A stretch of 32,000 nucleotides of DNA, taken from contig CAZECW010000060.1 in the NCBI GenBank assembly GCA_964510585.1, positions 30,001 to 62,000 on the forward strand, given 5' to 3'. How positions within the stretch are numbered: the first letter of the stretch is position 1; every line of letters starts with the position of its first letter. Below the pieces are notes generated by a model, which had not been told where the DNA came from, did no database searches, and was given only the letters and a program-made list of their open reading frames with translations. The DNA comes from an uncultured archaeon (lineage in GTDB: Archaea; Asgardarchaeota; Jordiarchaeia; Jordiarchaeales; Jordiarchaeaceae). A program made the position numbers and the translations under genes. Shown here one piece after another: positions 10,864-32,000 of this stretch.

Positions 10864-11214
10864 AACCCCAGAAAAATAGTAAATCCCCACACGCTTAAGC
10901 GTCTCTGACAAACCCACATACTCCTACGCATTACAGATAAAGAAGGAAAATATGTCTTCCCGGCGAACATATAGCGAATTTTAAACCGCCAGTTTATACA
11001 AAAAGCTACCTACGTTAAAGCCTACTAAACACCTAGGTTTTTCTAGTAAACCATTATATGCCGAAGAGTCCTGGGAGAATGAAAACCTGTTTTTAATAGG
11101 AGTATATTCAAACCGAAAAACGTAAACAACAGAAACTATTTTAAGCAATTAAAAACAAAGAATTGTTTTAAATTCATAATAATAATCACCCATTGGAAAA
11201 GGAGGAAGAGACTA

Positions 11215-12135
11215 TTGGTTTACATGTCACTTTGGGAAATAATCTTTGACATCATAGTTCTAATAATTGTTTTCGGCTTCGTGTTCGCAGTGATAGGTGC
11301 GGGAGAAGTCCTCAGAAAAAAGAAAAACCTTGACCCCAGCTTCACCCGAAAAATGATTCACTTCTTTGCAGGAGACGCTATACTATTCTGCCCCTTCTTC
11401 ATAAACCCACAAATAATACCCATAATACCATTAGTGATGGGAATACTAATATTCTTCTCATCCCCAAAATCCCCCATAAAAAGCATGAAGTCCATGTTCG
11501 AAGTAATGGCAAGAGCTGAAGACTATGCCGCAGGCCACATCTACGGACCACTATATTACATCATTTCCATAGGCATCCTTGTAACCGCATTCGCCTACTT
11601 TGGAGGAGGAGCCTACTGGCCACTATTCACAATAGCAGCAATAGGACTATTCGCTATGTATTATGGTGACGGATTAGCCACCATCGTTGGCCAAAAATGG
11701 GGAAAACATAAATACACCATTAGAGGGTGCACACGAAGTATTCAAGGCTCTTTAACCGTGTTCATAATGACTGTTCTTTCAGCGTTCTTAGTTATATTCT
11801 ACTTTAACTTCTTTGGATTCTGGCCCAGTGTGCCACCAAACCAGTGGTTAACAATCTGGCTACTATATAATTTTAGCCCAATTATAGCCACTTATATCGC
11901 CGTAAGCATACTTCTAACTACACCCCCAGTCATCCCAATACTCACCTTAATCCTTATTTCGGGAATAGTGGGAGGAATAGTGGCGGCAATAATCGAAGGG
12001 TGTTCAGGAAGAGAACTAGACAACATATATGTACCATTAGTAGTCACTGCAGTGATATTACTCCTAGTCTTCCTAATGTCCCCCAGCTATTTTACAGTAC
12101 TGTCCTACAATTTGGGCAATATAATCCCTTTCTAG
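11215..12135 (+). CDS. CTP-dependent polyprenol/phytol/dolichol kinase family membrane protein (Sec59/VTE5/Dgk1-like)
   Basis: RKMIHFFAG, GPLYY and YGDGLATIVG..WG.HK....RS.QGS motifs, C-terminal DN..VP, many TM helices. SD GGAGG upstream. Confidence 0.85.
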   Translation: MVYMSLWEIIFDIIVLIIVFGFVFAVIGAGEVLRKKKNLDPSFTRKMIHFFAGDAILFCPFFINPQIIPIIPLVMGILIFFSSPKSPIKSMKSMFEVMARAEDYAAGHIYGPLYYIISIGILVTAFAYFGGGAYWPLFTIAAIGLFAMYYGDGLATIVGQKWGKHKYTIRGCTRSIQGSLTVFIMTVLSAFLVIFYFNFFGFWPSVPPNQWLTIWLLYNFSPIIATYIAVSILLTTPPVIPILTLILISGIVGGIVAAIIEGCSGRELDNIYVPLVVTAVILLLVFLMSPSYFTVLSYNLGNIIPF

Positions 12136-13863: not shown

Positions 13864-13874
13864 CTACAAACACC

Positions 13875-15287
13875 TCACAAACCAAACACCATAGGATGTA
13901 GAATGTTATTGGGATCAAGAACCCCTTTGATTTTCTTCAAAAGGTCGTAGAAATTGGGTGATACATGGGAAAGACACTCCCCTTCCCACAGGGGCCCACA
14001 CCAATAGGGCACTGCACCACCAGTTGAAAATTCCATCTGTTTAAGTTCACTCCAAACTTTTTCCATCAGCGGCTTGTTTGTGGGGTCACCCATAAAGAGG
14101 GTAATCCAACCCGTACAGTAGCTTCTATCCACACCCAGAGCACTAATAATCCAATTCATACCCTTACCCTTAACATCATACTTCTTAAAGATCTTAAGTG
14201 CACCCTTTACAGTTTGGGGTAGAGTGGAGATGGGTCTCAAGTGGCAAGTATTATACCAGAAACCGGAATCAAAAAGAGGCTGAACCATGTTAAACATGTC
14301 GGTCCAATGAGCCTTAGACAGAAAGGTACCAAGAGACCGCCCATCCTTCTTAGCAATCTGGTCTACCAAATCTTTCTTTTTGTTGGCTATTTCCTCACTT
14401 TCTTCTTCTATTATAACCGCCAAAATGCATTCCAAGTGCTCATAGAAATCGAGATAAGAATTTGCCAAAAGATCAATTGAGTTTCTATCGCCCAGCAAAA
14501 CGAGCTCCTCAGCAAGATTCCTTCTCTGCAATTCATGCATAACTTTAGCGCAGTCCTCTATGCTGTCAAAACCATAGTCCGCAAAGGCTACTCCATTAGG
14601 AGTATAGTATACTTTAAGAGTTGCCTCAGTTTTTACACCGAGGGTCCCGTGGTCGCCCAGAAACAATCCAGTCAAATCATTGAATGTGGCATATCGGGCG
14701 AAAGTCTTTGCTTTGGGATTCCAGCCACTACCTGTATTAACAATCTCGCCCGTGGGCAACACAACTTCCAGACCCACAACGGAATCACAGGCACCACCCC
14801 ACTTACTGGCACCGCAGCCAATACTATTACCGCTCAGTGAGCCGCCAACGGTTCCCGCATTACCTCCATAGGGTCCACGGAATCCCAGTTTGAAACCTTT
14901 TTCCTTCAGTAAATGAATTAGTTCAGCCCACCTCAAACCTGCACCCACGGTAACCGTCATTGTGTCTTCGTCGAGCTTTTTCAGGTAGTCCATACGGGTT
15001 AAATCCAGCATTATTGCATTAGGCACGCGGGGCAGGGGGGCACCATTGATGCTGCTTCTAGCCCCTGCTGGAACTACGGGGATTTTTCTATCATTAGCAA
15101 GTTTTAGGATTTTTGAGACCTCTTCCGTGCAGCCGGGGCGGACTACAATTCCCGGAGAGTCTAATTGGAAGGGACTCGCATCTCGACTATAAGCTAAGAG
15201 ATCTATTGTGCTATCTCTAACGTTTTCCTCACCGGAAATGGCCACCAGTTCATAGTAAGAAGGATGGTGCTTTGCGCTCTCTAACAT
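13875..15287 (-). CDS. FAD-binding oxidoreductase (GlcD/D-LDH/AGPS/VAO superfamily)
   Basis: P..VVRPG.TEEVS.IL, TVGG, V.GLEVVLPTGE, G..GTLGV.TEATL and C-terminal DPNNILHP motifs. Co-transcribed with the Fe-S/CCG subunit (11-bp gap). Confidence 0.9.
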   Translation of the reverse strand: MLESAKHHPSYYELVAISGEENVRDSTIDLLAYSRDASPFQLDSPGIVVRPGCTEEVSKILKLANDRKIPVVPAGARSSINGAPLPRVPNAIMLDLTRMDYLKKLDEDTMTVTVGAGLRWAELIHLLKEKGFKLGFRGPYGGNAGTVGGSLSGNSIGCGASKWGGACDSVVGLEVVLPTGEIVNTGSGWNPKAKTFARYATFNDLTGLFLGDHGTLGVKTEATLKVYYTPNGVAFADYGFDSIEDCAKVMHELQRRNLAEELVLLGDRNSIDLLANSYLDFYEHLECILAVIIEEESEEIANKKKDLVDQIAKKDGRSLGTFLSKAHWTDMFNMVQPLFDSGFWYNTCHLRPISTLPQTVKGALKIFKKYDVKGKGMNWIISALGVDRSYCTGWITLFMGDPTNKPLMEKVWSELKQMEFSTGGAVPYWCGPLWEGECLSHVSPNFYDLLKKIKGVLDPNNILHPMVFGL

Positions 15288-15395
15288 TGTAATACCCTCT
15301 TGTGGGGAATAATTAGCGTAGAAAATTCTTTGCCCCTTTTAATTTTTTTCCCAATTTTATAATTAAAGTTCGCTTGTTTTATGATTATAACCAGT

Positions 15396-15443
15396 TTCGA
15401 CATTTATTTCGAATATTTAGCTTAAAATTCGAAATATGTTGAA
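15396..15443. promoter_or_regulatory. Imperfect inverted repeat in a divergent promoter, candidate operator
   Basis: Perfect 9-bp arms ATTTCGAAT (15406-15414) and ATTCGAAAT (15427-15435), plus outer arms TTCGACAT / ATGTTGAA with one mismatch. Confidence 0.45.
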
Positions 15444-15568
15444 CTAATCTCTGCAAATAACGATAATTTTTAATAAGCGCAAAACAGTTGAAACAGACCA
15501 CTTTATGCTCAAAAAATATCATCAATTATTCAAAAATACCTCTTGAGAGTGTTAGGAGCTGATAAGCG

Positions 15569-17086
15569 GTGACTATAGTAAACACCTCCAAAGATAAAAT
15601 ATTCGTTAAGGACAAATATTCAGGTGAAGTTATAGGTGAGTTGCCTGCGGACAACATGGATATTCTAAGAGAGAAAATCAAGAAAGTTTACAAACTTGAG
15701 GAAAAGATGCGAAATACCACTTTAGATGAGAGAATAGAGTTTATTAGAAGAGTTTCAAGAAGGATACGGTTGAAAAGACAAAAAATAAAGGAAACAATTG
15801 CAAGAGAAGGAGGACTCCCAATAAAATATGCCGATTGGGAAGTAGGTATGATATCTCAGGGCTACCTACACGCCGATTGGCGTGGAGAAATGATTGAGGA
15901 AAGAAAGATCCAAGCAATACGTGGAGAAAGCAGGGCCGCTTTTCACCCCTTAGGAACTTGCGGCTCAATGACTCCCAGAAACACCCCCTTCAGCCTTACC
16001 GGATGGGCAATAGGTGCCGCTTGGTTGACGGGTAATTCCCATGTTTTGAAGCCCTCAAGTGCGGTGCCACTCTCACCATTAATGCTCCTTGATCTTGCCC
16101 GGGATGTTGCGGATGACTTTCCAATCGAAGCTACCGAGATAACCGTTATGCCTGGTGATGAGGCAGCTACAGAATTTGTATCTAATCCTATGGTCAGCAT
16201 ATTCCTATTTTTCGGTAGTAGCCATGTCGGGAAACAGCTACTTATTGATTATGCAGAGTATCTTAAGAGCTGCACGCGTGCCCTGCCGTTTGCCGCGGGC
16301 TTTATGAATCAGGGCAAGTTCAAAAAATTCATTTTTGAAATGGCGGGAAACGATGCGGGAATAATTTTTGAGGATGTGGACATCGATAAAGCCGCCAACT
16401 TTGTAGTCAAAGCTGCACTCACAAATAGCGGTCAGCAATGCTTTAGCATGAAGAGGATACTAGTCCAAGACAGTATTTTCGACGATTTCCTAGATGCGAT
16501 GGTAAATTATACTTCAAAACTGAAAATGGGTAACCCACTAGACCCTACAGTAGACATTGGACCTCTAGGTTCGGAGAAAATAATGCTCATGATTGATTTT
16601 ATGGTGAAGGATGCCCTAAACAAGGGAGGCAAGCTTTTAATTGGAGGCGAACGCCAAGACCCCTTCTATCTACCTACAATAATAAAATTTGACAAAGAGC
16701 AGGTCATGGATCCCGACGAAAACAAGAGACCCTTCATGTGGGTTGAAGAAGCCTTCGGTCCCGCAAGAAGCGTTGTGCCCTTCCATAACGAGGAAGAAGC
16801 AGTGATGCTTGCTAATAGTACCACTTATGGTATGCGCGCTTCAATTTACTCTGAGGATCTAGACAAAGCAAACAGAGTTGCCCGAAAACTAGAAACCGCA
16901 GGGGTCTTCATAAACACAACACCAGGACAAGTAGACATATCATTCAAAATGGGCGGTGTTAAGGATTCGGGATTCCCACCAGGAGCACGCGACATAGTAA
17001 ATCACATGGTGAGAGAACAATTCATACATATTGAGGACGCCTTCCACGAAAAAGAAAAAGTGAAGGAGGAAGAAGAGGAGGAGTAA
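15569..17086 (+). CDS. NAD(P)-dependent aldehyde dehydrogenase (lactaldehyde dehydrogenase/GAPN-like clade)
   Basis: TPRNTP (catalytic Asn), LKPSS, FFGSSHVG, catalytic Glu in FEMAGND, catalytic Cys in SGQQCFS, EEAFGP and GGVKDSG. Confidence 0.92.
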   Translation: MTIVNTSKDKIFVKDKYSGEVIGELPADNMDILREKIKKVYKLEEKMRNTTLDERIEFIRRVSRRIRLKRQKIKETIAREGGLPIKYADWEVGMISQGYLHADWRGEMIEERKIQAIRGESRAAFHPLGTCGSMTPRNTPFSLTGWAIGAAWLTGNSHVLKPSSAVPLSPLMLLDLARDVADDFPIEATEITVMPGDEAATEFVSNPMVSIFLFFGSSHVGKQLLIDYAEYLKSCTRALPFAAGFMNQGKFKKFIFEMAGNDAGIIFEDVDIDKAANFVVKAALTNSGQQCFSMKRILVQDSIFDDFLDAMVNYTSKLKMGNPLDPTVDIGPLGSEKIMLMIDFMVKDALNKGGKLLIGGERQDPFYLPTIIKFDKEQVMDPDENKRPFMWVEEAFGPARSVVPFHNEEEAVMLANSTTYGMRASIYSEDLDKANRVARKLETAGVFINTTPGQVDISFKMGGVKDSGFPPGARDIVNHMVREQFIHIEDAFHEKEKVKEEEEEE

Positions 17087-17148: not shown

Positions 17149-17214
17149 AAGCCGGGAAAGAAACTTTTCTTCTCTTTTTCATTTACTCTTTCCCGGCTTC
17201 TGTTTCCTTTTTTT
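17149..17214 (+). terminator. 13-bp perfect stem plus T-tract between convergent genes
   Basis: AAGCCGGGAAAGA (17149-17161) / TCTTTCCCGGCTT (17187-17199), followed by TTTCCTTTTTTT. Confidence 0.6.
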
Positions 17215-17737
17215 AGGTAATGTGTCTTTTGAGTTCATCAATCGTTTTTTGAAATATTTGGAGTAATAGGTTCAATGTGTTCTCCGCATCTGTAAGTAGT
17301 TTTGTGAGATACTGTTTTTCTCTTGTTTCTTCATTATTTCTTGGGTTGAAGTGTTGCATAATTTTTTGGGCTTGTTTGATGCTTTCCTGAAGTTGCTTGT
17401 TGGTTTCTATCCATTTTAGTAGTCCTGCAATTATCATTTGGCTGAAGCTGGATTGGGATGAGTAGTAGGTTGTCCTATCCCCAGGTTTTTTGTGGCGTCT
17501 TATGGCGTTAAACTGTAGAAGAGTTTTAAGAGCTTGACTTACAGCGGCTAGACTGTAATTGGTTTTATCGCTAATCTGTTTCTGGGTGAGGGGTTCTGGG
17601 CTTAGTTGTATTGTGGCGAGAATTCTTCCAAGCATTGGGAAGCCGCCTCGTTCCTCCATTAACCGCTCCCAAGCCTGTGTGATTATTGATTTAGCAGATT
17701 GGAGTTCTTCTGCTTGCCGTATTGTTTTTTCGCTCAT
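17213..17737 (-). CDS. GbsR/MarR family transcriptional regulator
   Basis: G...MLGRI..T..LSPEPLTQKQI..T.YS.A.VSQALK.L wHTH with wing KKPGDR..YY, followed by a long helical C-terminus. Confidence 0.88.
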   Translation of the reverse strand: MSEKTIRQAEELQSAKSIITQAWERLMEERGGFPMLGRILATIQLSPEPLTQKQISDKTNYSLAAVSQALKTLLQFNAIRRHKKPGDRTTYYSSQSSFSQMIIAGLLKWIETNKQLQESIKQAQKIMQHFNPRNNEETREKQYLTKLLTDAENTLNLLLQIFQKTIDELKRHIT

Positions 17738-17768
17738 TTTAGGTCGAGATATTAAGTAATGGGGAAGG

Positions 17769-17806
17769 TTTATATATTTTACTAATTTTATTAATTATTA
17801 AAATTA
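17769..17806. promoter_or_regulatory. TATA box for the GbsR-like gene plus adjacent 24-bp near-palindrome
   Basis: Minus-strand TATATAAA at 17776-17769, 32 bp before the ATG. TAATTTTATTAATTATTAAAATTA (17783-17806) is self-complementary except for one pair. Confidence 0.45.
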
Positions 17807-17824
17807 CAAAAATTTGTAAAAAAG

Positions 17825-18475
17825 GTGCCTAAATTGAGGAACGTAAAATACTGGTTAAAGTTACCCATACGCATCATTTTCAAACCAAGAACTACAATGC
17901 AAGAACTTAAACAAAGTGAACCAATAAAAATTCCAATAATGTATATGCTCACCCTAGGTTTAATTACCTCTATAATGGCCGCTATTCTAACGCAGTATGG
18001 CATATCCTACGTTGATCCCAGAAATTGTGGAGGCTCAGCTCAAATTCTGGCAGGCTGGGTAATTGCTCACTACGGCTGTACATGGCCAACTCTAAGCCAA
18101 ATCTTAGGATACATATTACTAAACGAGTTTGGATACTTTATCCTCACAGTTGCCTTCATACCCTTTACCGCTCCGCTTGCCCGCTGGCTGACACTGAGAA
18201 ACACCGTAGACGCTCCAAAATCAGTCCGTTATTATGTTCTCAAATGTGTACAGGCAATATGCTACGGTATGACGCCAGCATCAATATTTGGGTGGATACC
18301 CAACCCAGTTAGCATAATAGGACTATGGGCCTCAGTGTGGCAGCTATACGCATTAAAAATCTTCTATGATTTTAACTGGAAAAAGGCAATAATAGTATTC
18401 GCGGCAGGTTTTCTGGGCGTATTATTCCTCCGGGAAATAGCATCACTACCCTGGATCCTTGGAGTTATACGCTGA
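17825..18475 (+). CDS. YIP1 family membrane protein
   Basis: IIFKPRTTMQEL N-terminal motif, about 5 TM segments, Y.MTP..IFGWIP...W..W...ALK pattern of archaeal Yip1 proteins. Confidence 0.72.
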   Translation: MPKLRNVKYWLKLPIRIIFKPRTTMQELKQSEPIKIPIMYMLTLGLITSIMAAILTQYGISYVDPRNCGGSAQILAGWVIAHYGCTWPTLSQILGYILLNEFGYFILTVAFIPFTAPLARWLTLRNTVDAPKSVRYYVLKCVQAICYGMTPASIFGWIPNPVSIIGLWASVWQLYALKIFYDFNWKKAIIVFAAGFLGVLFLREIASLPWILGVIR

Positions 18476-18644
18476 AATTCTTATGAACACGACTTGCACA
18501 AATACTAATTATTTTATGGCAAGGTGAAGCCTTTTTGGGTTTTTGAAGGAATTCAGGGTTCATTCAGTTTGATAATAGATATATAAGAGAAGAGTTTAAA
18601 ATTAATCTTAATTTAGTAAAGCAAATTGAATGGAGGGATAAGAG

Positions 18645-19568
18645 TTGGAGTACGATAAGGAGTTGACTTCTGAAATTAAAAAGTTCCTTCTTGATCAGGG
18701 AGCCGACCTCGTAGGTATCGCCCCTATCTCTAGATTTGAAGAGTGCCCTAAGGAAACCCACCCCCAACATTACATGCCGGATGCAACATGCGTGATATCC
18801 TTCGGAATGAAGATAATGAACGGGGTGTGCGATGTCTGGGGGGAGTATAATCAGCCTCACAAGAGTATTGCTCCATATCTGTTCTACGGATATGGATTGT
18901 TAAACTTTGACATGTCTCGGATAGGGAATCTCGTAGCAAAACGGTTGTTAGAATTCAGGGGCTACAAGTCCCTCATGTTTCCCCCAACTTGGATGATATC
19001 CCAGTATCGATTCATTGAGAGGGTTTTAGAGCCTTATGTTACCTTTTTGGCGGACTTTTCTCATCGCCACGCTGCTGTGGCCGCAGGGTTGGGAGAGTTT
19101 GGGTTTAATGGGTTAGTTTTGGTTCCAAAATTTGGTGCCCGTGTACGCTTTAACTCAATTATTACTAATGCCCCCCTAATGCCTGATCCCATGTATGATG
19201 GCCCTAAGCTTTGTCAGCCGGAGAAATGTGATTATAAGTGTGTTAGGGATTGTCCAACTGAGGCTTTAACTCTTGATGAAACCTTTACAGTGAGAATTGG
19301 CGATAAACAGTATGTGTATTCCAAGCCCAATAAGGTGAGGTGCATCATGGGCATATATGCTATGGTGAGAGGAACAGGGGCCAGGACGAGAAAAAGGTTA
19401 CCGCCCCGGGAAAAGAAGGAGATCACTATTGAGGATTTTGTGCAGGGACGCAAGGGTATTGGGGCATTTGACCAACTTTTTCTGGAGGATTGTCGGGGTC
19501 TAATTTGTGGAGACTTCTGCGGAAAGTGTCTTCACGGCTGCCCCGCACACAAATTCTACAAGGAGTAA
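18645..19568 (+). CDS. QueG/reductive-dehalogenase-like cobalamin-dependent 2x[4Fe-4S] protein
   Basis: GADLVGIAP, FSHRHAAVAAGLGEFG, P.FG.RVRF.SIIT, CQPEKCDYKCVRDCP and CGDFCGKCLHGCP motifs. Confidence 0.85.
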   Translation: MEYDKELTSEIKKFLLDQGADLVGIAPISRFEECPKETHPQHYMPDATCVISFGMKIMNGVCDVWGEYNQPHKSIAPYLFYGYGLLNFDMSRIGNLVAKRLLEFRGYKSLMFPPTWMISQYRFIERVLEPYVTFLADFSHRHAAVAAGLGEFGFNGLVLVPKFGARVRFNSIITNAPLMPDPMYDGPKLCQPEKCDYKCVRDCPTEALTLDETFTVRIGDKQYVYSKPNKVRCIMGIYAMVRGTGARTRKRLPPREKKEITIEDFVQGRKGIGAFDQLFLEDCRGLICGDFCGKCLHGCPAHKFYKE

Positions 19569-21416: not shown

Positions 21417-22463
21417 ATGATTAAAACCAAATTAACCGAAATGCTTGGAATAAAATATCCCATAATACAGGCTGGAATGGGGCCCCATAACACTACAAAT
21501 CTTGCGGCTGCCGTGGCAAATGCGGGTGGACTGGGACTTATATCTAGCATCGGGATGGGTTACTTGGCTTTTATGGATAAGCCCCTTTTTGGATTTACCG
21601 AAAAAACTCCTAGAGAACAGATGCTTCGCTCAATTGAAACTGTAAAAAACATGACCAAAAAAACTGGGGGTATATTCGGAATAAATGTGCCTGTGGCAGT
21701 CGAGTTTCAATCCATTTCGAAAGAACTCATAGAAGCAGGGCTTGAAGCTAGGGAAACCGATGAGGAAGTTAGAAGAAGAATGAAGGTCGTAGTAACCTCT
21801 GCAGGGAATCCAGAACCCTTTGTAGAGAGTATAAAAGAATCGGGAGCTTACCATTTTCATGTATGCCCCTCACCCTACCATGCGAAAAAAGTTGAAGGAT
21901 TTGGCACCGATGTGGTAATAGCCTCTGGCCATGAGGGTGGCGGTCACGTCGCACATGAACCAGTACATACAATGGTTCTACTTCCAGAAGTTGTAAAGAC
22001 TGTCAAAATCCCTGTAGTTGCAGCGGGAGGCATTTGTGATGGAGCAACACTTGCAGCTGCTTTGGCTCTGGGTGCAGTAGGTGTTCAGATGGGTACGCGT
22101 TTTATTGCAACCAAGGAGAGTGATTTCCATCAACCCTACAAGGATTATGTTGTGAATATTAAGGATGTTAGGGACACCGTTTTGGCTAAGGGTCTCTTTG
22201 GGAAAATTAGGTACATGAAGAATCCCGCCGCATTAAGACTTTTGCAGGCGGAGCAAAGGGGCGCATCAGAAACAGAGCTTTTCAATCTTGAAATGGTGGG
22301 ATTCGCAGCTATTGATAAAGGGGACATAGAGAACTCAGCTATGGCGGGGGGTGAAGTAGCAGGTAGAATTTCAGATATCCCTACAGTGAGGGAACTTATG
22401 GAGCGAATTGTTAATGAAGCAGAAGATATCATTAGAAACAGGTTACCAAAATTAATCGTCTAG
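21417..22463 (+). CDS. Nitronate monooxygenase / FabK-like FMN oxidoreductase
   Basis: LGIKYPIIQAGMG, V.NAGGLGLI, GHEGGGH, PVVAAGGI.DG and GVQMGTRFIATKES motifs. Confidence 0.9.
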   Translation: MIKTKLTEMLGIKYPIIQAGMGPHNTTNLAAAVANAGGLGLISSIGMGYLAFMDKPLFGFTEKTPREQMLRSIETVKNMTKKTGGIFGINVPVAVEFQSISKELIEAGLEARETDEEVRRRMKVVVTSAGNPEPFVESIKESGAYHFHVCPSPYHAKKVEGFGTDVVIASGHEGGGHVAHEPVHTMVLLPEVVKTVKIPVVAAGGICDGATLAAALALGAVGVQMGTRFIATKESDFHQPYKDYVVNIKDVRDTVLAKGLFGKIRYMKNPAALRLLQAEQRGASETELFNLEMVGFAAIDKGDIENSAMAGGEVAGRISDIPTVRELMERIVNEAEDIIRNRLPKLIV

Positions 22464-22665: not shown

Positions 22666-23526
22666 TTAGCTTTTTATATGTAGTATTTTTCTGGCTTCTT
22701 TGGGTGTTGCAATTTCTCTTCCTATGTCCTCGGCCATTCTTACGACTTTCTCTACAAATTGGGCATTGCTTTTTGCGAGTTCACCCTTTGAGATGTATAT
22801 GCTGTCCTCCATGCCCACGCGTACGTGTCCTCCTAGTACTATGGTAACTGCGGCTATGGGGAATGCGTATCTCCCCATTCCCGCCGCCTGCCAAGTGGAG
22901 TTTGGGGGGATGCTCTCCACTAGGTGTATTAGATTTTTGGGTGTGGGGAGAATGCATTGACCTGGAATTCCCATTACGAAGTTAAAGTGTAGGGGTTCTT
23001 TGAGTGCCCCAATTTCTTTTAGGAGCATGACGTTGTTTATGAAGCCAGTGTCGTAGATTTCGAGTTCAGGTTTTGTTCCGTTTTCAAGCATTGTTCGGGA
23101 TATGTACTCTAACTCGGAATAGTTTTGTTTTAAGACGAAGTCTCTTATCCATTTTCGTTCTTCAAAATCGTATCTTCCTGTTAGTCCTGCGCCCACGCTG
23201 AATGATGCTAATTCGGGTTTGAAGGTGGGTATTAGTTCCAGTCTCTTCTCTAAGGGTATTGTTGCCGCACCGCCAGTGGAAACGCATATGATGGCATCGC
23301 ACTTCTGTCTTATTCCTTCAATTATTTTTCCGAAAATCTTTACATCTGTGGTGGGTCTATTTTGTTCGTCTCTGGCATGAACATGTATAATTGAGGCGCC
23401 TGCCTCCCAGCATTCATAGGCCTGTTTAATTATTTCCTCCGGCTTCTCGGGAAGATTAGGGTTATCGGCTTTGGTGTGAAAGTTTCCAGTTAAGGCTACA
23501 CATATTATTAGCTTCTCCATCTTCAA
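22666..23526 (-). CDS. Beta-keto acid cleavage enzyme (BKACE, DUF849/Kce family)
   Basis: IICVALTG, NPNLP..PEEI, EAGASIIHVHARD (metal HxH), STGG, PELEIYD, GGHVRVGMED and REIATP.EAR motifs. Confidence 0.93.
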   Translation of the reverse strand: MKMEKLIICVALTGNFHTKADNPNLPEKPEEIIKQAYECWEAGASIIHVHARDEQNRPTTDVKIFGKIIEGIRQKCDAIICVSTGGAATIPLEKRLELIPTFKPELASFSVGAGLTGRYDFEERKWIRDFVLKQNYSELEYISRTMLENGTKPELEIYDTGFINNVMLLKEIGALKEPLHFNFVMGIPGQCILPTPKNLIHLVESIPPNSTWQAAGMGRYAFPIAAVTIVLGGHVRVGMEDSIYISKGELAKSNAQFVEKVVRMAEDIGREIATPKEARKILHIKS

Positions 23527-23542: not shown

Positions 23543-24349
23543 CTATTTTGCTTTAAAGTCTGGTTTGCGTTTCTCTATAAAGGCTCTTATTCCTTCCTTT
23601 GCATCTTCGCTTTGCCTTAGGGGTTCTGCTAAGTACTGTTCCAAGAGGAGACCTTCTCTTAAGGGCATTTCCATACCTCGGAGAACCGCCTTCTTTATTG
23701 CCCTAACGGCTAGTGGGCCCTTCTCACATATTTCTTGGGCGGTTTCCATTGCGGTGGGCATTAGTTTTGGGAGGGGCACTACTTTGTTGACAAGGCCTAT
23801 TTGGAGCGCTTCTTGCGCGTTTATTCTTTTCGCCATCATCATCATTTCAAGGGCTTTGGCTATACCTATTATTCTGGGTAATCTTTGCGTTCCACCGGCT
23901 CCGGGTATTATTCCTAATTGTGCCTCTGTTAGGCCGAAAACCGCGTTTTCTGAAGCTATTCTGATGTCGCAGGCGAGTGCTATCTCCATTCCTCCAGCCA
24001 AACAATAACCATTTATTGCAGCAATTATGGGTTTCCATATCTCGAGGTTTCTTGTTATTCCTCCAAGTCCTGGTTCCTTTTCTGCAATTTCCAAGCGTTC
24101 AGCTGAACTGAACTTGGAATAGAATTCTCCAATTTTTCTCACATCAGCCCCAGCGCAGAAGGACTTGTCTCCTGCTCCAGTTATTATTGCCACCCAAAGA
24201 TTTGGATCGTCTCTGAAATCTATCCACGCTTTGTTTAGCTCTACGATAGCGTCTGGGTCTAGTGCGTTTCGAACTTCAGGGCGATTTATGGTTATTATGG
24301 CTATCCTATCCTTCTTTTCGTAAATTATACTCATGTTAAACACATCCAT
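23543..24349 (-). CDS. Enoyl-CoA hydratase (canonical crotonase, CaiD/EchA19-like)
   Basis: NRPEVRNAL, FCAGAD, both catalytic Glu present (GGMEI and GLTE), PGAGGTQRL and DAKEG..AF.EKRKP. Confidence 0.93.
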   Translation of the reverse strand: MDVFNMSIIYEKKDRIAIITINRPEVRNALDPDAIVELNKAWIDFRDDPNLWVAIITGAGDKSFCAGADVRKIGEFYSKFSSAERLEIAEKEPGLGGITRNLEIWKPIIAAINGYCLAGGMEIALACDIRIASENAVFGLTEAQLGIIPGAGGTQRLPRIIGIAKALEMMMMAKRINAQEALQIGLVNKVVPLPKLMPTAMETAQEICEKGPLAVRAIKKAVLRGMEMPLREGLLLEQYLAEPLRQSEDAKEGIRAFIEKRKPDFKAK

Positions 24350-24351
24350 CT

Positions 24352-24801
24352 TTAAATTGGCTTAAAATAATCAATGTCCAGAATATTTCCCTCTCGCTGA
24401 TCCTTGAATACTGCTTGCACACGCATACCGGGTTTAATCTTATCTAGGTCCACTTCTCCAAGGATGTGAACAATATTGGTGTCCGCTCCATCAAGTTTAA
24501 TGATGCCGTAGGCCAACGGTGGCTTCTTGGGCAGGTTGGGGCTGGAGCGATAAGTAACAGTGTAGGCAATCAAAGTGCCCTTGTCTCCAACCTCTACCCA
24601 TTCATTGGTCTCCGCCATACACTTCCCACAATATCTACGTGGAGGTACCAGAATTTGGCCGCATTTGGGACACTTAACTCCCATAATTCTCTTGTTATCC
24701 CTAAGCTCTATGAAGAACTTGCTAGCAACGCGCCCCACACTATAGCTGAAGGGCAAAACAATCCTTGTAGGTAGTATGACAGCGTCTTCCTTCTCACTCA
24801 T
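24352..24801 (-). CDS. DUF35 Zn-ribbon/OB-fold protein
   Basis: CPKC..PPR..CGKC Zn ribbon, GTL..YT, I.LDGADT.I.H and MRVQAVF. ATG start at 24801 (ORF track starts at 24813). Confidence 0.92.
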   Translation of the reverse strand: MSEKEDAVILPTRIVLPFSYSVGRVASKFFIELRDNKRIMGVKCPKCGQILVPPRRYCGKCMAETNEWVEVGDKGTLIAYTVTYRSSPNLPKKPPLAYGIIKLDGADTNIVHILGEVDLDKIKPGMRVQAVFKDQREGNILDIDYFKPI

Positions 24802-24809
24802 TTTTAGTC

Positions 24810-25304
24810 TCACTCCTCAATTGTTCTAAAGAAAATAATGTCCGTGATGTTTCCTTCAAGTTCTTCTCTCCAAACGGCTTGAACCCTCATTCCGATTCTC
24901 ATCTTGCTTAAATCATTCTCTTCCAGAAAGTAGTTGATTGTAGTATCTGCGCCGTCCAGTTGAATGAGAGCCATCCCGTAAGGCACTGGCCTAGGCTTCC
25001 CAGTTCTAGGGTCTACGAATGGCTGATAAACTACAGTGTAGGCTTTAACCGTCCCCTTATCGCTAATCTCAGACCACCCATCTATCTTCTTGTAACATTC
25101 GCCACAGATGAGGCGGGGGGGCAGATAAACCCGGCCGCAACTTGAACATTTGGCACCTAAAATCTTTCTCTCCTCTTTCCAAGCTCTATAAAATTTAGTA
25201 TAGTAACTACCTCCAGACCAGCGGTACTCAAGATTCATATTTATGGAAACCCTAAGAAGATCCTTCTCTTCTTTTACTTCTTCCTTACCTTCACCCTTAG
25301 ACAT
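24810..25304 (-). CDS. DUF35 Zn-ribbon/OB-fold protein (second paralog)
   Basis: CSSC..PPR..CGEC, GTV.AYT, I.LDGADT and MRVQAVW. Confidence 0.92.
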   Translation of the reverse strand: MSKGEGKEEVKEEKDLLRVSINMNLEYRWSGGSYYTKFYRAWKEERKILGAKCSSCGRVYLPPRLICGECYKKIDGWSEISDKGTVKAYTVVYQPFVDPRTGKPRPVPYGMALIQLDGADTTINYFLEENDLSKMRIGMRVQAVWREELEGNITDIIFFRTIEE

Positions 25305-25316
25305 ATTTTTTGCCTC

Positions 25317-26474
25317 CTATAAATGGCTTGATAAAACCATCATATCACACCAAGTGTAAACACCGTATCCGTGAACTAGGACTGTTTCAACATCAGGCAC
25401 CTGCCTCTTACCACCCTTTCCATGAATCTGCAACGCTCCCTCCGCAGCCCTGATAACTCCTGAAGCACCCACAGGATTTGTGGATAGAACTCCCCCGGAA
25501 GGGTTTACGGGGAGCTCACCGTCCATTGAGGTAACGCCCTCATCCACTAGTTTGCCAGCTTCCCCTTCCTTACAGAATCCCATAGCTTCGTACCATGCCA
25601 TCTCAGCATAAGAAACTGGCTCGTATATCTCAGCAACGTCGAATTGTTTCAGAGGGTTAGTTATGCCTAACTTTTTATAGATTATATTGCAGCACTCGCG
25701 GATGGTTCTTATGGTGGCCAATCTGTTTATGTGATCCCCTAAATAGGGGGTATCGTGTCTGGTAACCGCAGCTTTAACCCAAGCGGGGTTTTCACAAAGT
25801 TCTTTTGCCTTCTTCTCGGAAGCATAAATAATTGCGCAGGCGCCGTCGGACTGTGGACACATATCAAACAAATGAATGGGATAAGCTATGTACCTTGAGT
25901 TCAAAACTTTTTCAACGGTTAAATCGGGAATGTGAAGGTGGGCATAGGGATTGTTCAAAGCGTTCTTCCTAGCTTTAACAGCAACTTTGGCAGCTTGCTC
26001 CTGTGTAACTCCCCTAGAAGCCATATATTCTGTTATGGAAAGTGCGAAGTTTCCAGGCGCAGCGGAGGCCACTGGTCTATCCCAGAAGGGATCGGCAAGA
26101 GCCATACCGGCAAATGTGTGGCCGTCAGAGTGTTTTTCGAATCCCACAACCATCACAATATCAAAGAGCCCCGATGCAGTAGTGTAATATCCGGCTATGG
26201 CTGCAGAGGAGCCTGAAGTGCCCCCAGTAGCAATCTTTAACTGGTGTTTCAGGTAGGCGCCAGCCCCTTCCGCAACCCACATGTCTGGAAGAGCTCTACC
26301 CTCAAATAGCTCCATATTATCTGTTATCACCGCATCTATATCCTTTATCTCTAATTGAGCATCTTCTAGGGCTCTACTTGCAGCTTCGAATACCATTTCT
26401 GCTTGATTAGCATCATTCCTTTTACTTACATGCTTGGTTTGGCCCGTTCCAATAATGGCTACATTTCTCTTCAT
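25317..26474 (-). CDS. Thiolase-fold protein, Ltp3-like (probable aldolase subunit)
   Basis: IIGTGQTK, FEG, NPYAHL..PD.TVEKV, CPQSDGACA, AEIYEP and VNPSGGVLSTNPVGASG..R.AE motifs. No nucleophile Cys (ATGGTSG) and GHP His replaced by Asn. Confidence 0.85.
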   Translation of the reverse strand: MKRNVAIIGTGQTKHVSKRNDANQAEMVFEAASRALEDAQLEIKDIDAVITDNMELFEGRALPDMWVAEGAGAYLKHQLKIATGGTSGSSAAIAGYYTTASGLFDIVMVVGFEKHSDGHTFAGMALADPFWDRPVASAAPGNFALSITEYMASRGVTQEQAAKVAVKARKNALNNPYAHLHIPDLTVEKVLNSRYIAYPIHLFDMCPQSDGACAIIYASEKKAKELCENPAWVKAAVTRHDTPYLGDHINRLATIRTIRECCNIIYKKLGITNPLKQFDVAEIYEPVSYAEMAWYEAMGFCKEGEAGKLVDEGVTSMDGELPVNPSGGVLSTNPVGASGVIRAAEGALQIHGKGGKRQVPDVETVLVHGYGVYTWCDMMVLSSHL

Positions 26475-26493
26475 TTAAGGGACACCTCCTCAA

Positions 26494-27651
26494 TCATCTG
26501 CCCACAATAACCACGCAGTGCATTTGCCCACAGGGACCGGTAGTCCCATGTGCCAGCGCTGTTTCTACTTCAGGCACTTGGCGTTTACCTGCTTCACCCC
26601 AGCACTGCTCTACAGTTTCAACCAGTCTGGTTAAACCTGCCACGATGTAGGGGTTTCCTGCAAGCATACCGCCTGAGGTATTGACTGGTAGCTCTCCGTC
26701 CATTTCAGTTATTCCCTCATCTATGAGCCTTCCGGCGTCACCTCTTTTACAGAAGTCCAGTCCCTCTAACCATAAAAGTTCCTGATAGGAGAAGGGTTCT
26801 GAAATTTCTGCAACGTCAATCTCCTTCAAGGGCTTATTGATACCTGCAAGTTCATAGGCTCTCTTGGCAGCTATGGTTAATGCGGAACACTCGGTAAGGT
26901 CTCGGTCGCCGAGGTAGTGGGAGTCGTAGCAGTTGCCCATTCCCTTAATCCAGACTGGTTCTCTCCCCTTTTCCCTAGCTATTTCCTTAGCTCTCTTCTC
27001 CGATGCCAGAATCAAGGCACATGCACCATCCGAAACAGGAGCTGCTTCAAGGGATTTGATGGGGTAAGATAATATTTCTGATTGAAGAACGTCGTCCACA
27101 CTTATGTTCATCGGTTGGTAGGCGTAGGGATTATTAAACGCGTTTCTATGATTTTTAACTGAAACCTTAGCAAAATGCTCCTCAGACAAGCCGTATTTAT
27201 TCATGTACCAACTTGCCTGTAACCCTGCAGAAGAGAGATAATCTAACCCCAACATCTGCTGGTAAACAGGATCAAAAACCCAATTAGTAATATCGTAGTG
27301 AGTACCCCTGGAACCTAAACAGTGGGCTACAACCATGACAACGTCAAAGTCGCCCGATAGAATATTTAAAGCTGCATGGAAGGCGGCCAGAATGCCGTCG
27401 TCGGCAACTCTGGTTTCTGAACCCATAACGCCCCCAACCACTTCAGTGAGGAATGCGCCAGAAGCAGTGGCGCCGTCCCAGAGGTCTACAGAGGCGCTCA
27501 CAGTGTTTTCGATGTCCTTTATGTTTAGACCTGCATCCTCCAGAACCTTGGTTACAACCTCGTAAGCAACTTCGGGAATGGTTTTATTCAGCACTAAACC
27601 ATATTTTGATTGTGCTGTCCCAACAATACCCACTTTTTCTGGTAGACCCAT
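26494..27651 (-). CDS. Thiolase-fold protein, Ltp4-like (probable aldolase subunit)
   Basis: S.D..DG, E.RV..D, FDP....L..D..S.AGLQA, APVSDGACA, VNTSGG.LAGNP and AHGTTGP.GQ motifs. ATG start at 27651; the ORF-track start at 27750 overlaps the upstream gene. Confidence 0.82.
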   Translation of the reverse strand: MGLPEKVGIVGTAQSKYGLVLNKTIPEVAYEVVTKVLEDAGLNIKDIENTVSASVDLWDGATASGAFLTEVVGGVMGSETRVADDGILAAFHAALNILSGDFDVVMVVAHCLGSRGTHYDITNWVFDPVYQQMLGLDYLSSAGLQASWYMNKYGLSEEHFAKVSVKNHRNAFNNPYAYQPMNISVDDVLQSEILSYPIKSLEAAPVSDGACALILASEKRAKEIAREKGREPVWIKGMGNCYDSHYLGDRDLTECSALTIAAKRAYELAGINKPLKEIDVAEISEPFSYQELLWLEGLDFCKRGDAGRLIDEGITEMDGELPVNTSGGMLAGNPYIVAGLTRLVETVEQCWGEAGKRQVPEVETALAHGTTGPCGQMHCVVIVGR

Positions 27652-27685: not shown

Positions 27686-28486
27686 TCATTTGTCCTTGAA
27701 TTCCGCCTTTCTTTTTTCCAAAAAGGCGGCCATTCCTTCCCTTGTATCAAAAGTTGTGAAATTTATTAGAACAGTGTTTATGGAGTAGTCTATTGCTGTG
27801 TCTAGGTCGGTTGTCATCCATTTGTGAATGATGTCCTTCTGTGTGGCGAACACCGTGTTGCTATACCTTGTAAGTGTGTCTACCCACCGCTGAACTTCTT
27901 TGTCCAGTTCTTCTGGTGGCACCACTGCATTAACTAGTCCCCGCCGCTCTGCTTTTTCAGCATCCCAAAATTTTCCTGTAAGAGCCAGTTCTCTTGCGCC
28001 CATTATGCCAATAGCTTGAACCAGAATTGCGGCTTCCACAATGGCTGGGATTCCAACCTTGATGTTGGGAAGGCCGAACTTGGAGCGGTTAGTGGCAATT
28101 ATGAAGTCGCATGAAATTGCTAGTTCAAGTCCCGCCCCTAAACAGTAACCGTCAACAGCGCATATGATGGGTCTTTCACAGGTTCTACAGGCGAGAAAGG
28201 TTTTGTGTAATTGCTTGGGAATCTCTCTTTGCTTCCAAACTTCGCTGGGAAGGCTTACAAAATCGATGTCTGTTCCGGCGCTGAAAGCCTTATCTGTGGT
28301 GGATTTGATGACTATTACCTTTACTTCATCATCTTTTTGAAACTCTTTCAGTGTTTCCTCTATTTCGACTAATAGGTCCATGTTGATGGCGTTCAATTTT
28401 TCGGGGCGATTCAGAAATATTCTACCTACCGGAGGATCTTTTTGGGTGATTATTGTTTTGAGTTTTTTCTCTTCTTTTACTACCAA
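27686..28486 (-). CDS. Crotonase-family protein, atypical (second catalytic Glu replaced by Asn)
   Basis: NRPEKLNAI, FSAGTD, LGAGLEL, then FGLPNIKVGIP instead of FGLPE. SD GGAGG upstream. Confidence 0.88.
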   Translation of the reverse strand: MVVKEEKKLKTIITQKDPPVGRIFLNRPEKLNAINMDLLVEIEETLKEFQKDDEVKVIVIKSTTDKAFSAGTDIDFVSLPSEVWKQREIPKQLHKTFLACRTCERPIICAVDGYCLGAGLELAISCDFIIATNRSKFGLPNIKVGIPAIVEAAILVQAIGIMGARELALTGKFWDAEKAERRGLVNAVVPPEELDKEVQRWVDTLTRYSNTVFATQKDIIHKWMTTDLDTAIDYSINTVLINFTTFDTREGMAAFLEKRKAEFKDK

Positions 28487-28622: not shown

Positions 28623-30362
28623 TTATAGCACTCCGAGGAAGAATCGTTCAGGGTCAAAGATTCTCAAGAGGAATAATTCTTGTTCGGATGGCGGTTCAAT
28701 TTTTTCAAGAGGGTCTGCTAACTCAACCTTCCATCCAGTGTTCTGTATAATTTTTTGAATCATTTCACTCTCCGAAATTCCTCTTTGAGCATAGTATTTT
28801 TTCAGAACCATAATTCCGTGTTCTTTTTCGAAAACTGCATGTGAGGTTATGATTTTGCTAACCTTTTCCCCGGGACATGTTATGTAGGGCACCTTATCTA
28901 CAAGACGCTCTTTGTTTTGCACCATTATCACCATGGTCTCCCTAGCTCTAGCAACTATGTCGTTGGCGCCCCCACTGCCCACCAGTGTAACTCCATCAGT
29001 TCTTGTTGAGTTAATGTTTCCGTACTTGTCAACTTGTCCAGCAGACAGAATGGCCATAGACTTGGGATAGTTGACATTTATTCCAATAGAACCCACCAAA
29101 TCGGTTATCATTTTGCATGTGGGTATGTTTGCCATAGTAAATATGAATGGGTCTGTTGGTTTTGGAAGATATCCAAACATGCCCCACTCCACGAGTAGAT
29201 CTACCAGAATGTTCTCAGATCTTAGTGTGTGGGTTGCCAGCCATGCAGCTAAGTTTGCCATGCCGATTCCTGCAAGGAGAATCTTGTAATCTTTACTTTT
29301 TATCGTTTTAACTAGTTCTCTGGAAGCTGTGACGATGGCTCTTTCCTCTTCGGTAAAATTATTGAAACTAGGCATATTACGTATAGTGTGGGGAAGCAGC
29401 TGCTTCCAGGAGTCGGGGTTACCTCTCCCCCTAAGAATCATCAGTCTCTCGAAGCCTAGTTTGTTCAAGTAACCTTGAAAGTTTCCAACATCATAAATCC
29501 ACTCTTTTATCCACTTTTGCATAGTCTCCTCTTTTTTACTGGCATTATTTAATTCGATATTAAAGGGAATATCTTGGTAATAGCTTGAGCCGTCAGGAGC
29601 GTAGAAAGAGAAGGGGTGAGCTCCAAAAGGAGTCTCACAAACAGCTTTTACAAAGTGGCCGGGAATATCAACCATTGGAGCGTTTTTCCTAATGAAATCC
29701 GTTGAAACAATTTTCTCAACTGTTACTATTGCCCCATTACGGCTAGCATAAGCGCCGTAAGCTCTTTCACTCATAGGTAACCCTATTATAGTGTTCCCAT
29801 TTGGGTCGGCGCACCAAGCATGGAGTATAGAGAAGTCGGGCTTCACAGCCTTGAGTAAACCCACTTTTTCCCCACTTCCAAAGGGATCATCAATGACAAG
29901 GAAGCTATCTTTTAACTCCTTCTCCATAGTTGAACCTATCATAGACTTTGTGGGTATAAACTTGACATCCAGAGCTCCCGCTAATAGTCTTAGAACTATG
30001 GAAAGCATTGACCAGTGCTCCACTTCCATGCCCTTATCAATAGCTCTCTGAAAGGCCCTTGAAGGAGAGGGGGCTGGAAAAACATTACCCATATAGCTTG
30101 CTATCAGCTTTTTTATTAGATTCGATGCCGCGAGTATCTGAACTTGCAGGGCGCTTCCTAAACAAATTATTTCAAACTGCGGATTCTTGTCTCTGAACTG
30201 TCTACATATTTCGCTTATGGCACTAAATGAACTCCTATTAGTAGATATGTGTAAAAACATTTTAGGTCGTATGTATTTCTTTATTGCTTCTTCCAAGGGG
30301 AGAACTTTGCTCTCTCCTTCGTAGAGCTCTGTTTTGAAAATGTCTTCATACTCTTTAGACAA
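28623..30362 (-). CDS. Class I CoA-transferase, alpha and beta subunits fused (GctAB/CatIJ-like)
   Basis: Alpha part WS..S...RLLAGA..V.F.PT.S..GS and H...AD..GN. Beta part AGIG.ANLAA, LVEWG (catalytic Glu position), GQVDKYGNINST and GSGGAND. Confidence 0.88.
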   Translation of the reverse strand: MSKEYEDIFKTELYEGESKVLPLEEAIKKYIRPKMFLHISTNRSSFSAISEICRQFRDKNPQFEIICLGSALQVQILAASNLIKKLIASYMGNVFPAPSPSRAFQRAIDKGMEVEHWSMLSIVLRLLAGALDVKFIPTKSMIGSTMEKELKDSFLVIDDPFGSGEKVGLLKAVKPDFSILHAWCADPNGNTIIGLPMSERAYGAYASRNGAIVTVEKIVSTDFIRKNAPMVDIPGHFVKAVCETPFGAHPFSFYAPDGSSYYQDIPFNIELNNASKKEETMQKWIKEWIYDVGNFQGYLNKLGFERLMILRGRGNPDSWKQLLPHTIRNMPSFNNFTEEERAIVTASRELVKTIKSKDYKILLAGIGMANLAAWLATHTLRSENILVDLLVEWGMFGYLPKPTDPFIFTMANIPTCKMITDLVGSIGINVNYPKSMAILSAGQVDKYGNINSTRTDGVTLVGSGGANDIVARARETMVIMVQNKERLVDKVPYITCPGEKVSKIITSHAVFEKEHGIMVLKKYYAQRGISESEMIQKIIQNTGWKVELADPLEKIEPPSEQELFLLRIFDPERFFLGVL

Positions 30363-30437: not shown

Positions 30438-31484
30438 CTAGATTTGAATCACAATTCTAATGGGGTTTCCCACCTTTTTCTCCAATCTTTCCAGTCCCTC
30501 ATTTACCTGTTCAAGTTTTAACACCTGACTAATAGACCGTGAAAGATCAAGCTTCTTCATTTTAATTAACTCCAATATTCGGTCAATCTCCTCCTTGTTG
30601 CTGCCAAACGAGCCCATAACCTGATCTTCGCAGTAAACGAATATGTAGGGTGAAACCAGTTCTATTTTTTCTGGCCCAATTCCCACAATGACCGCTCTTC
30701 CACCTTTTCGAATACTTTTAACTGCTCGGTCTATGGTAGTCGCCATTCCCACGAATTCTAAAGCCAAGTCCACACCCTTGCCCCCTGTGATTTCGCTGAT
30801 TCTTTTACCCGTTTTCTCCCTAGCAGAATTTATGGTGAAGTCAGCTCCCAGCATCTTGGACCTTTCAAGAATTTCATCAGAAACATCTATAGCAATAATT
30901 TTGGAGGCCCCAGCCAATTTAGCTATCTGTATTGCGTGAGAGCCTAAACCTCCACATCCAAAAATAGCTACGGTCTCACCTAACCTTAGGTTTCCACGGG
31001 TGATTATCGCGTGGTATGGAGTTGCGACAGCATCACCAATAATGGCGGCTTGTTCGAAGGGAACACCCTCTGGTATTTTTGTAAGACAATTTTTAGGTAT
31101 TTTCAGGTAATCTGCCAAGCCACCATCTACGTGAAGACCCAGTATTTGAGCATTTACACAAAGCGCTTCGCGACCACTTCTACACGCGTAGCATGCGCCA
31201 CACGTGATGGAGGAAATAACTAGAACTTTATCTCCAATCTTCCATCCTTCCACCCCTTCTCCTATTTCCGCGATTTCTCCAGCTATCTCGTGTCCCAGAG
31301 TTATTGGTGTTTTTGCGGGGGGAATGGTGCCGTCGCGGGCTATGTGCACATCTGTGCCACAGATCCCACAGGCCTTAACTTTTATCAGCACCTCTCCCGC
31401 CCCAATTTTGGGAATAGGTAATTTTTCGATAGTTAGGGGTTCGCCGGCTTTGTAGAATCTTGCGGCTCTCATAGTAGCTTCCAT
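30438..31484 (-). CDS. Zinc-dependent medium-chain alcohol dehydrogenase
   Basis: CGICGTD, GHE, structural Zn CGACYACRSG...C, and Rossmann GCGGLG. Confidence 0.93.
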   Translation of the reverse strand: MEATMRAARFYKAGEPLTIEKLPIPKIGAGEVLIKVKACGICGTDVHIARDGTIPPAKTPITLGHEIAGEIAEIGEGVEGWKIGDKVLVISSITCGACYACRSGREALCVNAQILGLHVDGGLADYLKIPKNCLTKIPEGVPFEQAAIIGDAVATPYHAIITRGNLRLGETVAIFGCGGLGSHAIQIAKLAGASKIIAIDVSDEILERSKMLGADFTINSAREKTGKRISEITGGKGVDLALEFVGMATTIDRAVKSIRKGGRAVIVGIGPEKIELVSPYIFVYCEDQVMGSFGSNKEEIDRILELIKMKKLDLSRSISQVLKLEQVNEGLERLEKKVGNPIRIVIQI

Positions 31485-31509: not shown

Positions 31510-32000
31510 TTAAAGCTTGAACACCTTTATGGCATTATCTCTTAGGAGTTTTTTCTTTACTTCGTAGCTTAAACCTAGTTCGTCAATCTCTTTAAGGCAT
31601 CTCTTGAAGTCTAGAAGGGGATAATCAGTTCCCCAGAGGACTTTATCCTGCCCCCAGGTTGCCACGAACTGTTTGAATGATCCGGGCCAGAATTTGGGTG
31701 CACGAGCAGAGGTGTCTATATAAACATTTGGAAATTTCCACGCTAAAATCATCATTTCCTCATGCCAAGGCTGACCAAGATGTCCGCCAATTATTTTCAG
31801 CTCAGGGAAAAACAAAGCAACCTCATCCAAGTATATGGGTCGCGCACACTCTGATGGCAAAAGCGGTCCGGTGTGACCTATCTGGATGGTAACCGGTATG
31901 TCAAGCTCGACACATTTTGCATAGATAGGATAATAGTATTTGTGATTTGGAGGCAAACCCACAATGCCGTCCGCATACTGGTAAGGCTCCAACTTGATGG
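31510..32000 (-). CDS. Amidohydrolase_2 family metallo-hydrolase, 5' part outside the window
   Basis: YYPIYAKC.EL.IPV..Q.GHTGP..PSE..RP, FPELKI..GH.G.PW, PNVYIDTSA and KVLWGTDYP. The frame stays open to the window edge. Confidence 0.9.
   Translation of the reverse strand, partial: IKLEPYQYADGIVGLPPNHKYYYPIYAKCVELDIPVTIQIGHTGPLLPSECARPIYLDEVALFFPELKIIGGHLGQPWHEEMMILAWKFPNVYIDTSARAPKFWPGSFKQFVATWGQDKVLWGTDYPLLDFKRCLKEIDELGLSYEVKKKLLRDNAIKVFKL

Follow-up and report, generated by a model that had tools for sequence, protein, structure and literature searches.

Which reaction could be catalyzed by a pair of proteins that have the fold of a thiolase and none of its catalytic residues? The question is raised by a 32,000-nucleotide stretch from an uncultured archaeon of the Jordiarchaeia (GenBank assembly GCA_964510585.1, contig CAZECW010000060.1, positions 30,001 to 62,000; hereafter the window), in which the interval 24352-27651 is filled exactly by four open reading frames on the minus strand, TB, TA, D1 and D2. 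They are spaced by 19, 12 and -4 nt, the GTG start of D2 overlapping the stop of D1, and GGAGG-like ribosome sites are present. With Pfam, Thiolase_N and Thiolase_C_1 domains were identified in both TA and TB, and one copy each of zf-ChsH2 and OB_ChsH2_C (DUF35) in D1 and in D2, both with an intact zinc ribbon and a single OB fold. [quoted passage not shown]

TA and TB were aligned with solved thiolases of the SCP2 type. The column of the nucleophilic Cys is occupied by Gly85 in TA and Gly86 in TB, and that of the GHP His by Asn333 in both. The His of the HDCF motif is replaced by Tyr284 in TA and Ser284 in TB, and its Cys by Pro286 in both proteins. Judged by these residues, neither can be a normal thiolase. 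Their best sequence matches in the PDB are active SCP2-type thiolase/DUF35 complexes; fold and DUF35 partnership are shared with the archaeal acetoacetyl-CoA (coenzyme A) thiolase 6ESQ, BbsAB (7PXP) and PhlBC (5M3K). In the alignment, 6ESQ and 7YVY keep the nucleophilic Cys and the catalytic His that TA and TB have lost; BbsB and PhlC keep them as well. A preliminary description of the locus had noticed the replacement of the nucleophile and of the GHP His, and all the motifs it quoted are present. It had also listed the lack of a C-terminal CxG Cys. The quoted HG motifs are there, but Cys374 of TB, five residues on, was overlooked, and in the SCP2-type branch the second catalytic Cys is that of HDCF. 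Its statement that the Tyr of AEIYEP is common to Ltp3 proved right: this residue is Tyr284, which like Asn333 is found in 100/100 members of the TA clade, five actinobacterial Ltp3 proteins among them. The substitutions in TA are therefore due neither to chance nor to decay.

The suggested kinship to Ltp3/Ltp4 was likewise recovered when 211 thiolase-fold proteins were placed in a tree. TA shares a clade of 100 with Ltp3 (support 0.999); the sister clade, of 78, holds TB together with Ltp4 (support 0.73 at the base and 0.99 one node further in). References were taken from actinobacteria, at loci where tandem-DUF35, ltp4 and ltp3 stand in this order next to genes for a hydratase and a ligase; the two tested pass the family cut-offs (717-734 bits for PRK08313, 573-593 bits for PRK07937), and the tested hydratase passes that of EchA19. 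By sequence, TA and TB are relatives of Ltp3 and Ltp4, not strict family members (identities of 39-41 and 30-33%, respectively). The system of the Actinomycetes consists of Ltp3 (Rv3523 type, PRK08313/NF006180), Ltp4 (Rv3522 type, PRK07937/NF005924) and a tandem-DUF35 protein (Rv3521 type), adjoined by echA19 and an acyl-CoA ligase gene. An EchA19-like hydratase adjoins TA/TB too, and the two systems also share the Gly/Tyr/Asn signature (TA and Ltp3), an Asp-Gly elbow and a C-terminal Gln (TB and Ltp4), the gene order ltp4-then-ltp3 and the presence of two DUF35 domains. Unlike in Actinomycetes, the DUF35 domains lie on two single genes downstream of TA and not on a tandem gene upstream, the host is an anaerobic archaeon, and the companions include BKACE, an atypical crotonase, an amidohydrolase and a zinc-dependent alcohol dehydrogenase (Zn-ADH). 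A further group, the archaeal PRK06065/PRK06066 pairs with two DUF35 genes, has the same four-gene anatomy, is Cys-less and carries the Tyr in one subunit. These uncharacterised pairs form a sister group outside the Ltp3/Ltp4 clades; TA and TB score ∼275 bits against them, below the cut-off of 455.

A catalytic function of Tyr284 has precedents. In the aldolases Ltp2 and Sal, the bases Tyr294 and Tyr302, both mutationally proven, act together with the acids Tyr344 and Cys304, respectively (PMC12329534). The Ltp2 residues were mapped from that study and from PDB 6OK1 via an Ltp2-like protein in locus L095. Tyr284 of TA shares its column with both bases, and Tyr is absent from this column in TB. 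The steroid C3 side-chain aldolase TcLtp2-ChsH2(DUF35) (6OK1) is, like TA, a Cys-less thiolase fold with a Tyr base and a DUF35 partner; TcLtp2 is a homodimer, its partner DUF35 is fused to a MaoC hydratase, and it scores only 102 bits to TA. The bile-acid C5 side-chain aldolase CtSal-CtShy(DUF35) (9MYR) is a thiolase homodimer with two flanking DUF35 proteins; its acid Cys304 belongs to a YDCY motif absent from TA, and its product is an aldehyde. TA is the probable catalytic subunit.

Multimer modelling, which had been proposed with the preliminary description, was performed with the TA and TB chains only and yielded a confident dimer. The interface score ipSAE was 0.94, compared to 0.00 for the best of three controls, at least 95% of contacts were common to the runs, and the predicted local distance difference test (pLDDT) of the partner was at least 93; the score mark is reached by 58/80 solved pairs and 2/110 mismatched pairs. 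Resemblance to thiolase dimers of known structure may account for this pass, and the model does not tell a heterodimer from a homodimer. An AlphaFold2 model of TA alone (18-row alignment) was poor, with a mean pLDDT of 57, and was not used. D1 forms a distinct lineage (support 0.986) and D2 belongs to a D2-type lineage. As separate, long-lived lineages that fuse repeatedly, they indirectly support a four-part complex, in which TB would probably be the non-catalytic or accessory half of the heterodimer.

The conserved acidic residues of TB could instead point to two active sites, TA being the lyase and TB an enzyme with an acidic site of its own (Asp56, Asp59 and Asp85, perhaps metal-binding) for an adjacent step such as hydration, hydrolysis or decarboxylation, or one that gives TA its proton donor. 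Asp85, beside the former nucleophile, is present in 78/78 members of the TB clade, Ltp4 included, and Asp56 in 77/78; all three Asp residues are invariant in a 56-sequence alignment. TB also retains Ser114, Asp127, Arg250 and Gln376, and many TBs of other subclades hold Tyr and His at the two catalytic columns. In the TA:TB model, the TB-specific conserved residues Asp56, Asp127, Gly372 and Gln376 lie in the interface, which offers a structural reason for the conservation of Asp56; the listed interface residues do not include Asp85. In Ltp4, the position of Asp59 is taken by Ala. TB diverges more than TA does (mean identity 44 vs. 51%), and variation is free in its Tyr column (Tyr 32, Ser 28, His 6 and Thr 4). 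A second active site is considered unlikely.

TA and TB might also act as two independent homodimers, each paired with a DUF35 protein of its own; the characterised Ltp2 and Sal are homodimeric and carry two copies of the same DUF35 domain (PMC12329534). The existence of lone TA-type genes and the blindness of the model to this distinction would fit. However, the TB of this copy has neither the Tyr nor the His and would have little to do alone, in almost all loci with sufficient flanking sequence TB is found immediately before TA, D1 and D2 are repeatedly fused into one chain, and Ltp3-Ltp4 is described as a heteromeric aldol-lyase of C24-branched sterols (PMC6678751). We regard independent homodimers as quite improbable.

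To compare split and fused DUF35 genes across taxa, as had also been proposed, a pattern derived from TA was used; of its 591 matches the best 80 were surveyed, a set in which Actinomycetes are under-sampled. Two or more single-DUF35 genes were found in 71 of these loci and a fused gene in 2; the remaining 7 were cut or had one only. Cupriavidus necator N-1 (L017) is an example of a cultured organism with a split cassette. Fusions run N-D1/C-D2 in loci L022 and L050 and in 6/7 database clusters, with short linkers (∼37 aa in L022, ∼15 aa in L050). The fused state needs three changes on the TA tree, on which a single origin was rejected (p-AU 4e-56), and the genes are split in the PRK06065-type outgroup and in the deep-branching complete cassettes C38 and C27. 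Because fusion arose at least three times and both the outgroup and the deep cassettes are split, the split state is probably ancestral. The preliminary description was thus probably right about the direction of change and had overstated its meaning, since split genes are the usual state outside Actinomycetes and not a special relic. It had also seen in the DUF35 pair a mirror of the actinobacterial tandem protein. Two single DUF35 genes are indeed present, but no one-to-one match of D1 and D2 to the tandem halves was obtained, as both halves score better with the D2 profile.

The cassette is not confined to this locus. The host genome (3.78 Mb, 96% complete) contains six two-thiolase/two-DUF35 cassettes (C60, C28, C38, C139, C27 and C87, the last of the PRK06065/PRK06066 kind). 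They stand on separate tree branches and are therefore not recent duplicates. In the nearest named relative, Ca. Jordarchaeum madagascariense (Jordarchaeia and Freyarchaeia being equivalent names; PMC11291895), TA is 94% identical and the gene order is the same, which places the host in the Jordarchaeia/Freyarchaeia of the Asgard archaea. TA-like genes were found in 4/5 other genomes of the genus; with the queries used, the complete genome G005 of the genus yielded no close TA-like gene and no ECH1 orthologue. Six loci (L053, L069, L072, L074, L076 and L081) carry two different cassettes within ∼10 kb. Three TA-type paralogues of the host (L100:6921-8192, L104:6615-7811 and L105:8315-9508) carry Cys in the position just before that of the lost nucleophile, and two of these three are without TB on their examined locus.

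The genes around the cassette bear on its product. The subclade to which TA belongs has 25 members and is tight (support 1.0); Desulfobacteraceae are sister, Myxococcota, Acidimicrobiia, Anaerolineae and further groups are present as well, and this composition suggests horizontal exchange. The operon core of the subclade consists of TB, TA, D1, D2, a hydratase with both Glu residues (ECH2 in the window), an atypical crotonase (ECH1) and BKACE; amidohydrolase, acyl-CoA dehydrogenases and Zn-ADH are frequent extras. BKACE enzymes convert a free 3-oxo acid and acetyl-CoA to acetoacetate and an acyl-CoA (PMC11961710), and the product proposed for Ltp3/Ltp4 is such a free carboxylate, which requires re-activation (PMC6678751). 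A BKACE gene stands within the examined locus in 34/80 loci, beside several TA subclades, and in 18/23 loci of the TA subclade; chance co-occurrence is estimated at roughly 2-3% from six BKACE genes in 3.8 Mb, related loci not being independent. In L094:1890-3461, a DUF35 domain and BKACE share one reading frame, possibly a physical link between cassette and BKACE. In ECH1, the second catalytic Glu is replaced by Asn and a new Glu follows ten residues later, identically in 20/20 orthologues; this residue set is undescribed, and the protein is possibly a hydrolase, isomerase or decarboxylase. Fused-length matches to the CoA-transferase were found in only 5/24 subclade genomes (E<=1e-40).

Combining these observations, the following reaction sequence is proposed. 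The substrate would be a beta-branched acyl-CoA, hydrated by ECH2 to a tertiary 3-hydroxyacyl-CoA, which cannot be oxidised to a 3-oxoacyl-CoA, so that thiolysis is impossible. In a TA-TB heterodimer, probably flanked by D1 and D2 with one DUF35 protein per thiolase fold, Tyr284 of TA would deprotonate the 3-hydroxyl group and the C2-C3 bond would break, releasing acetyl- or propionyl-CoA and leaving a ketone; TB would complete the dimer and be inactive in Tyr chemistry in this copy. The ketone most likely is, or becomes, a free 3-oxo acid, from which BKACE could form acetoacetate and a shortened acyl-CoA with acetyl-CoA.

Several points weigh against this reading. TA has neither of the known aldolase general acids: the column of Ltp2 Tyr344 holds Asn333, and that of Sal Cys304 and Ltp2 His296, the second residue that TcLtp2 needs, holds Pro286. 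With the base and without a known acid, there is precedent for the first half of the retro-aldol reaction and none for the proton donor. Both proteins score below the family cut-offs (TA 393 against 514 bits for Ltp3, PRK08313; TB 178 against 419 bits for Ltp4, PRK07937). Two lone TA-type genes of the host have no TB on their examined loci, so TA-type proteins may work without TB. A literature search gave no biochemistry on Ltp3/Ltp4 or any relative, and the PDB contains no Ltp3-like chain (best TA match 149 bits); by these sources, Ltp3/Ltp4 are known from genetics only. No route to the 3-oxo acid was identified. The 96%-complete genome yielded no biotin carboxyltransferase (PF01039), which a control search found in 12/14 genomes. 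Acetone carboxylase was rejected as a general source of the 3-oxo acid, its gamma subunit being found in only 6/24 subclade genomes and not a conserved partner; the host itself has three gamma genes (C139:1017-1352, C131:13256-13591 and C52:5405-5740). Candidate biotin carboxylase genes next to Asgard relatives proved to encode an FAD oxidoreductase, an FAD/2Fe-2S reductase, an SCP2 protein and an Fe-dependent alcohol dehydrogenase.

With no carboxyltransferase found and with acetone carboxylase not conserved as a partner, the substrate of the proposed retro-aldolase would more likely already be dicarboxylic, such as a 3-substituted glutarate, or a ring-opened alicyclic compound. The former is suggested by the fused CoA-transferase, which is closest to glutaconate CoA-transferase, and the latter by the amidohydrolase, because its family includes the beta-diketone hydrolase of steroid ring A (PMC11780191). 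The amidohydrolase may itself be a hydrolase of that kind: the two belong to the same family, but it measures 282 aa against a 40 kDa band for the hydrolase.

A sterol side chain is an unlikely substrate, and a true functional equivalence of TA/TB to Ltp3/Ltp4, with C24-branched sterol side chains cleaved once they have been carboxylated and hydrated, is very unlikely. The shared clades, the best family of the adjacent hydratase (EchA19) and an acyl-CoA ligase gene ∼1 kb beyond the window edge speak for such an equivalence. The low identities and scores below all three family cut-offs speak against it, as do the different companions (BKACE, amidohydrolase and Zn-ADH). Moreover, the sterol route requires a carboxylation step beforehand (PMC6678751), for which the carboxyltransferase was not found in the genome.

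A non-canonical thiolase or acyltransferase using a relocated Cys (Cys206 of TA, 100/100 in its clade, or Cys374 of TB, 64/78) is hardly credible, as both oxyanion/base His residues are lost, the conservation of Cys206 is partly circular (it is in the search pattern) and the same Cys occurs in 7/9 ordinary thiolases with their own nucleophile, in a column which we take to line the pantetheine channel and not the reaction centre, and Cys374 is Ala (11) or Gly (3) in 14 TBs, partners of the closest TA relatives among them.

More speculatively, and with considerable doubt, the cassette could encode a third type of catalysis within the thiolase-fold aldolases, in which a heteromer of four subunits has its Tyr base in TA and its proton donor elsewhere (the Asp cluster of TB or water). 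It would stand at the centre of an anaerobic pathway, undescribed and independent of a carboxylase, that handles beta-branched or alicyclic acids with a hydratase, an atypical crotonase, the retro-aldolase, BKACE and an amidohydrolase and is common to sulfate reducers, Myxococcota, Acidimicrobiia and Jordarchaeum. The occurrence of the cassette shows the family to be common in anaerobes and Asgard archaea and no sterol speciality confined to Actinomycetes. Its use, with six diverged copies in one genome, would be to overcome beta-branches at which beta-oxidation is blocked. The four subunits are small and separately encoded, and if the host is a thermophile they are probably thermostable; they would be a convenient system for studying the mechanism and the proton donor. 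The conserved association with BKACE offers a concrete way to approach the product.

Table 1. Genes of the cassette and its neighbours (positions in the window unless stated otherwise).
Feature	Position	Strand	Description
TB	26494-27651	-	385 aa; Ltp4-like thiolase fold; no nucleophile Cys; Ser284, Asn333; conserved Asp56/Asp59/Asp85
TA	25317-26474	-	385 aa; Ltp3-like thiolase fold; Gly85 at nucleophile site; Tyr284; Asn333
D1	24810-25304	-	164 aa; single DUF35, zinc ribbon with two CxxC and OB fold
D2	24352-24813	-	single DUF35; 153 aa from GTG, 149 aa from ATG 24801 (JGI call)
ECH2	23543-24349	-	enoyl-CoA hydratase with both catalytic Glu; scores best with EchA19 (263 bits, cut-off 400)
BKACE	22666-23526	-	PF05853 beta-keto acid cleavage enzyme; HxH and R-x-G-x-E-D motifs; below Kce cut-off
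ECH1	27686-28486	-	atypical crotonase; first Glu retained, second Glu replaced by Asn
Fused A+B CoA-transferase	28623-30362	-	most similar to glutaconate CoA-transferase (PDB 1POI); catalytic position of GctB still Glu
Zn-dependent alcohol dehydrogenase	30438-31484	-	frequent subclade companion
Amidohydrolase-2 protein	31510-32000, crosses window edge (L111:5511-6359)	-	282 aa; frequent subclade companion

The cluster extends ∼6.4 kb beyond the window. There, the acyl-CoA ligase gene is flanked by the near-paralogous Amidohydrolase-2 genes L111:5511-6359 (-) and L111:8687-9526 (-), followed by a PaaG-like crotonase, an NMO/FabK-like flavoprotein and another crotonase. NMO/FabK-like flavoproteins of 348 aa stand at both cluster ends (window 21417-22463, plus strand; L111:10485-11531, minus strand). 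An Rfam scan gave no match, and a promoter/terminator scan gave the same counts as in shuffled sequences. Open reading frames of 170-360 aa without a Pfam match at E<=1e-6 are located at 9919-12135 and 17213-19568 of the window and at L111:12520-13593. Unlinked to the cassette, a CCG-domain protein and an FAD-linked oxidase on the minus strand are encoded divergently from an aldehyde dehydrogenase at 12241-17086.

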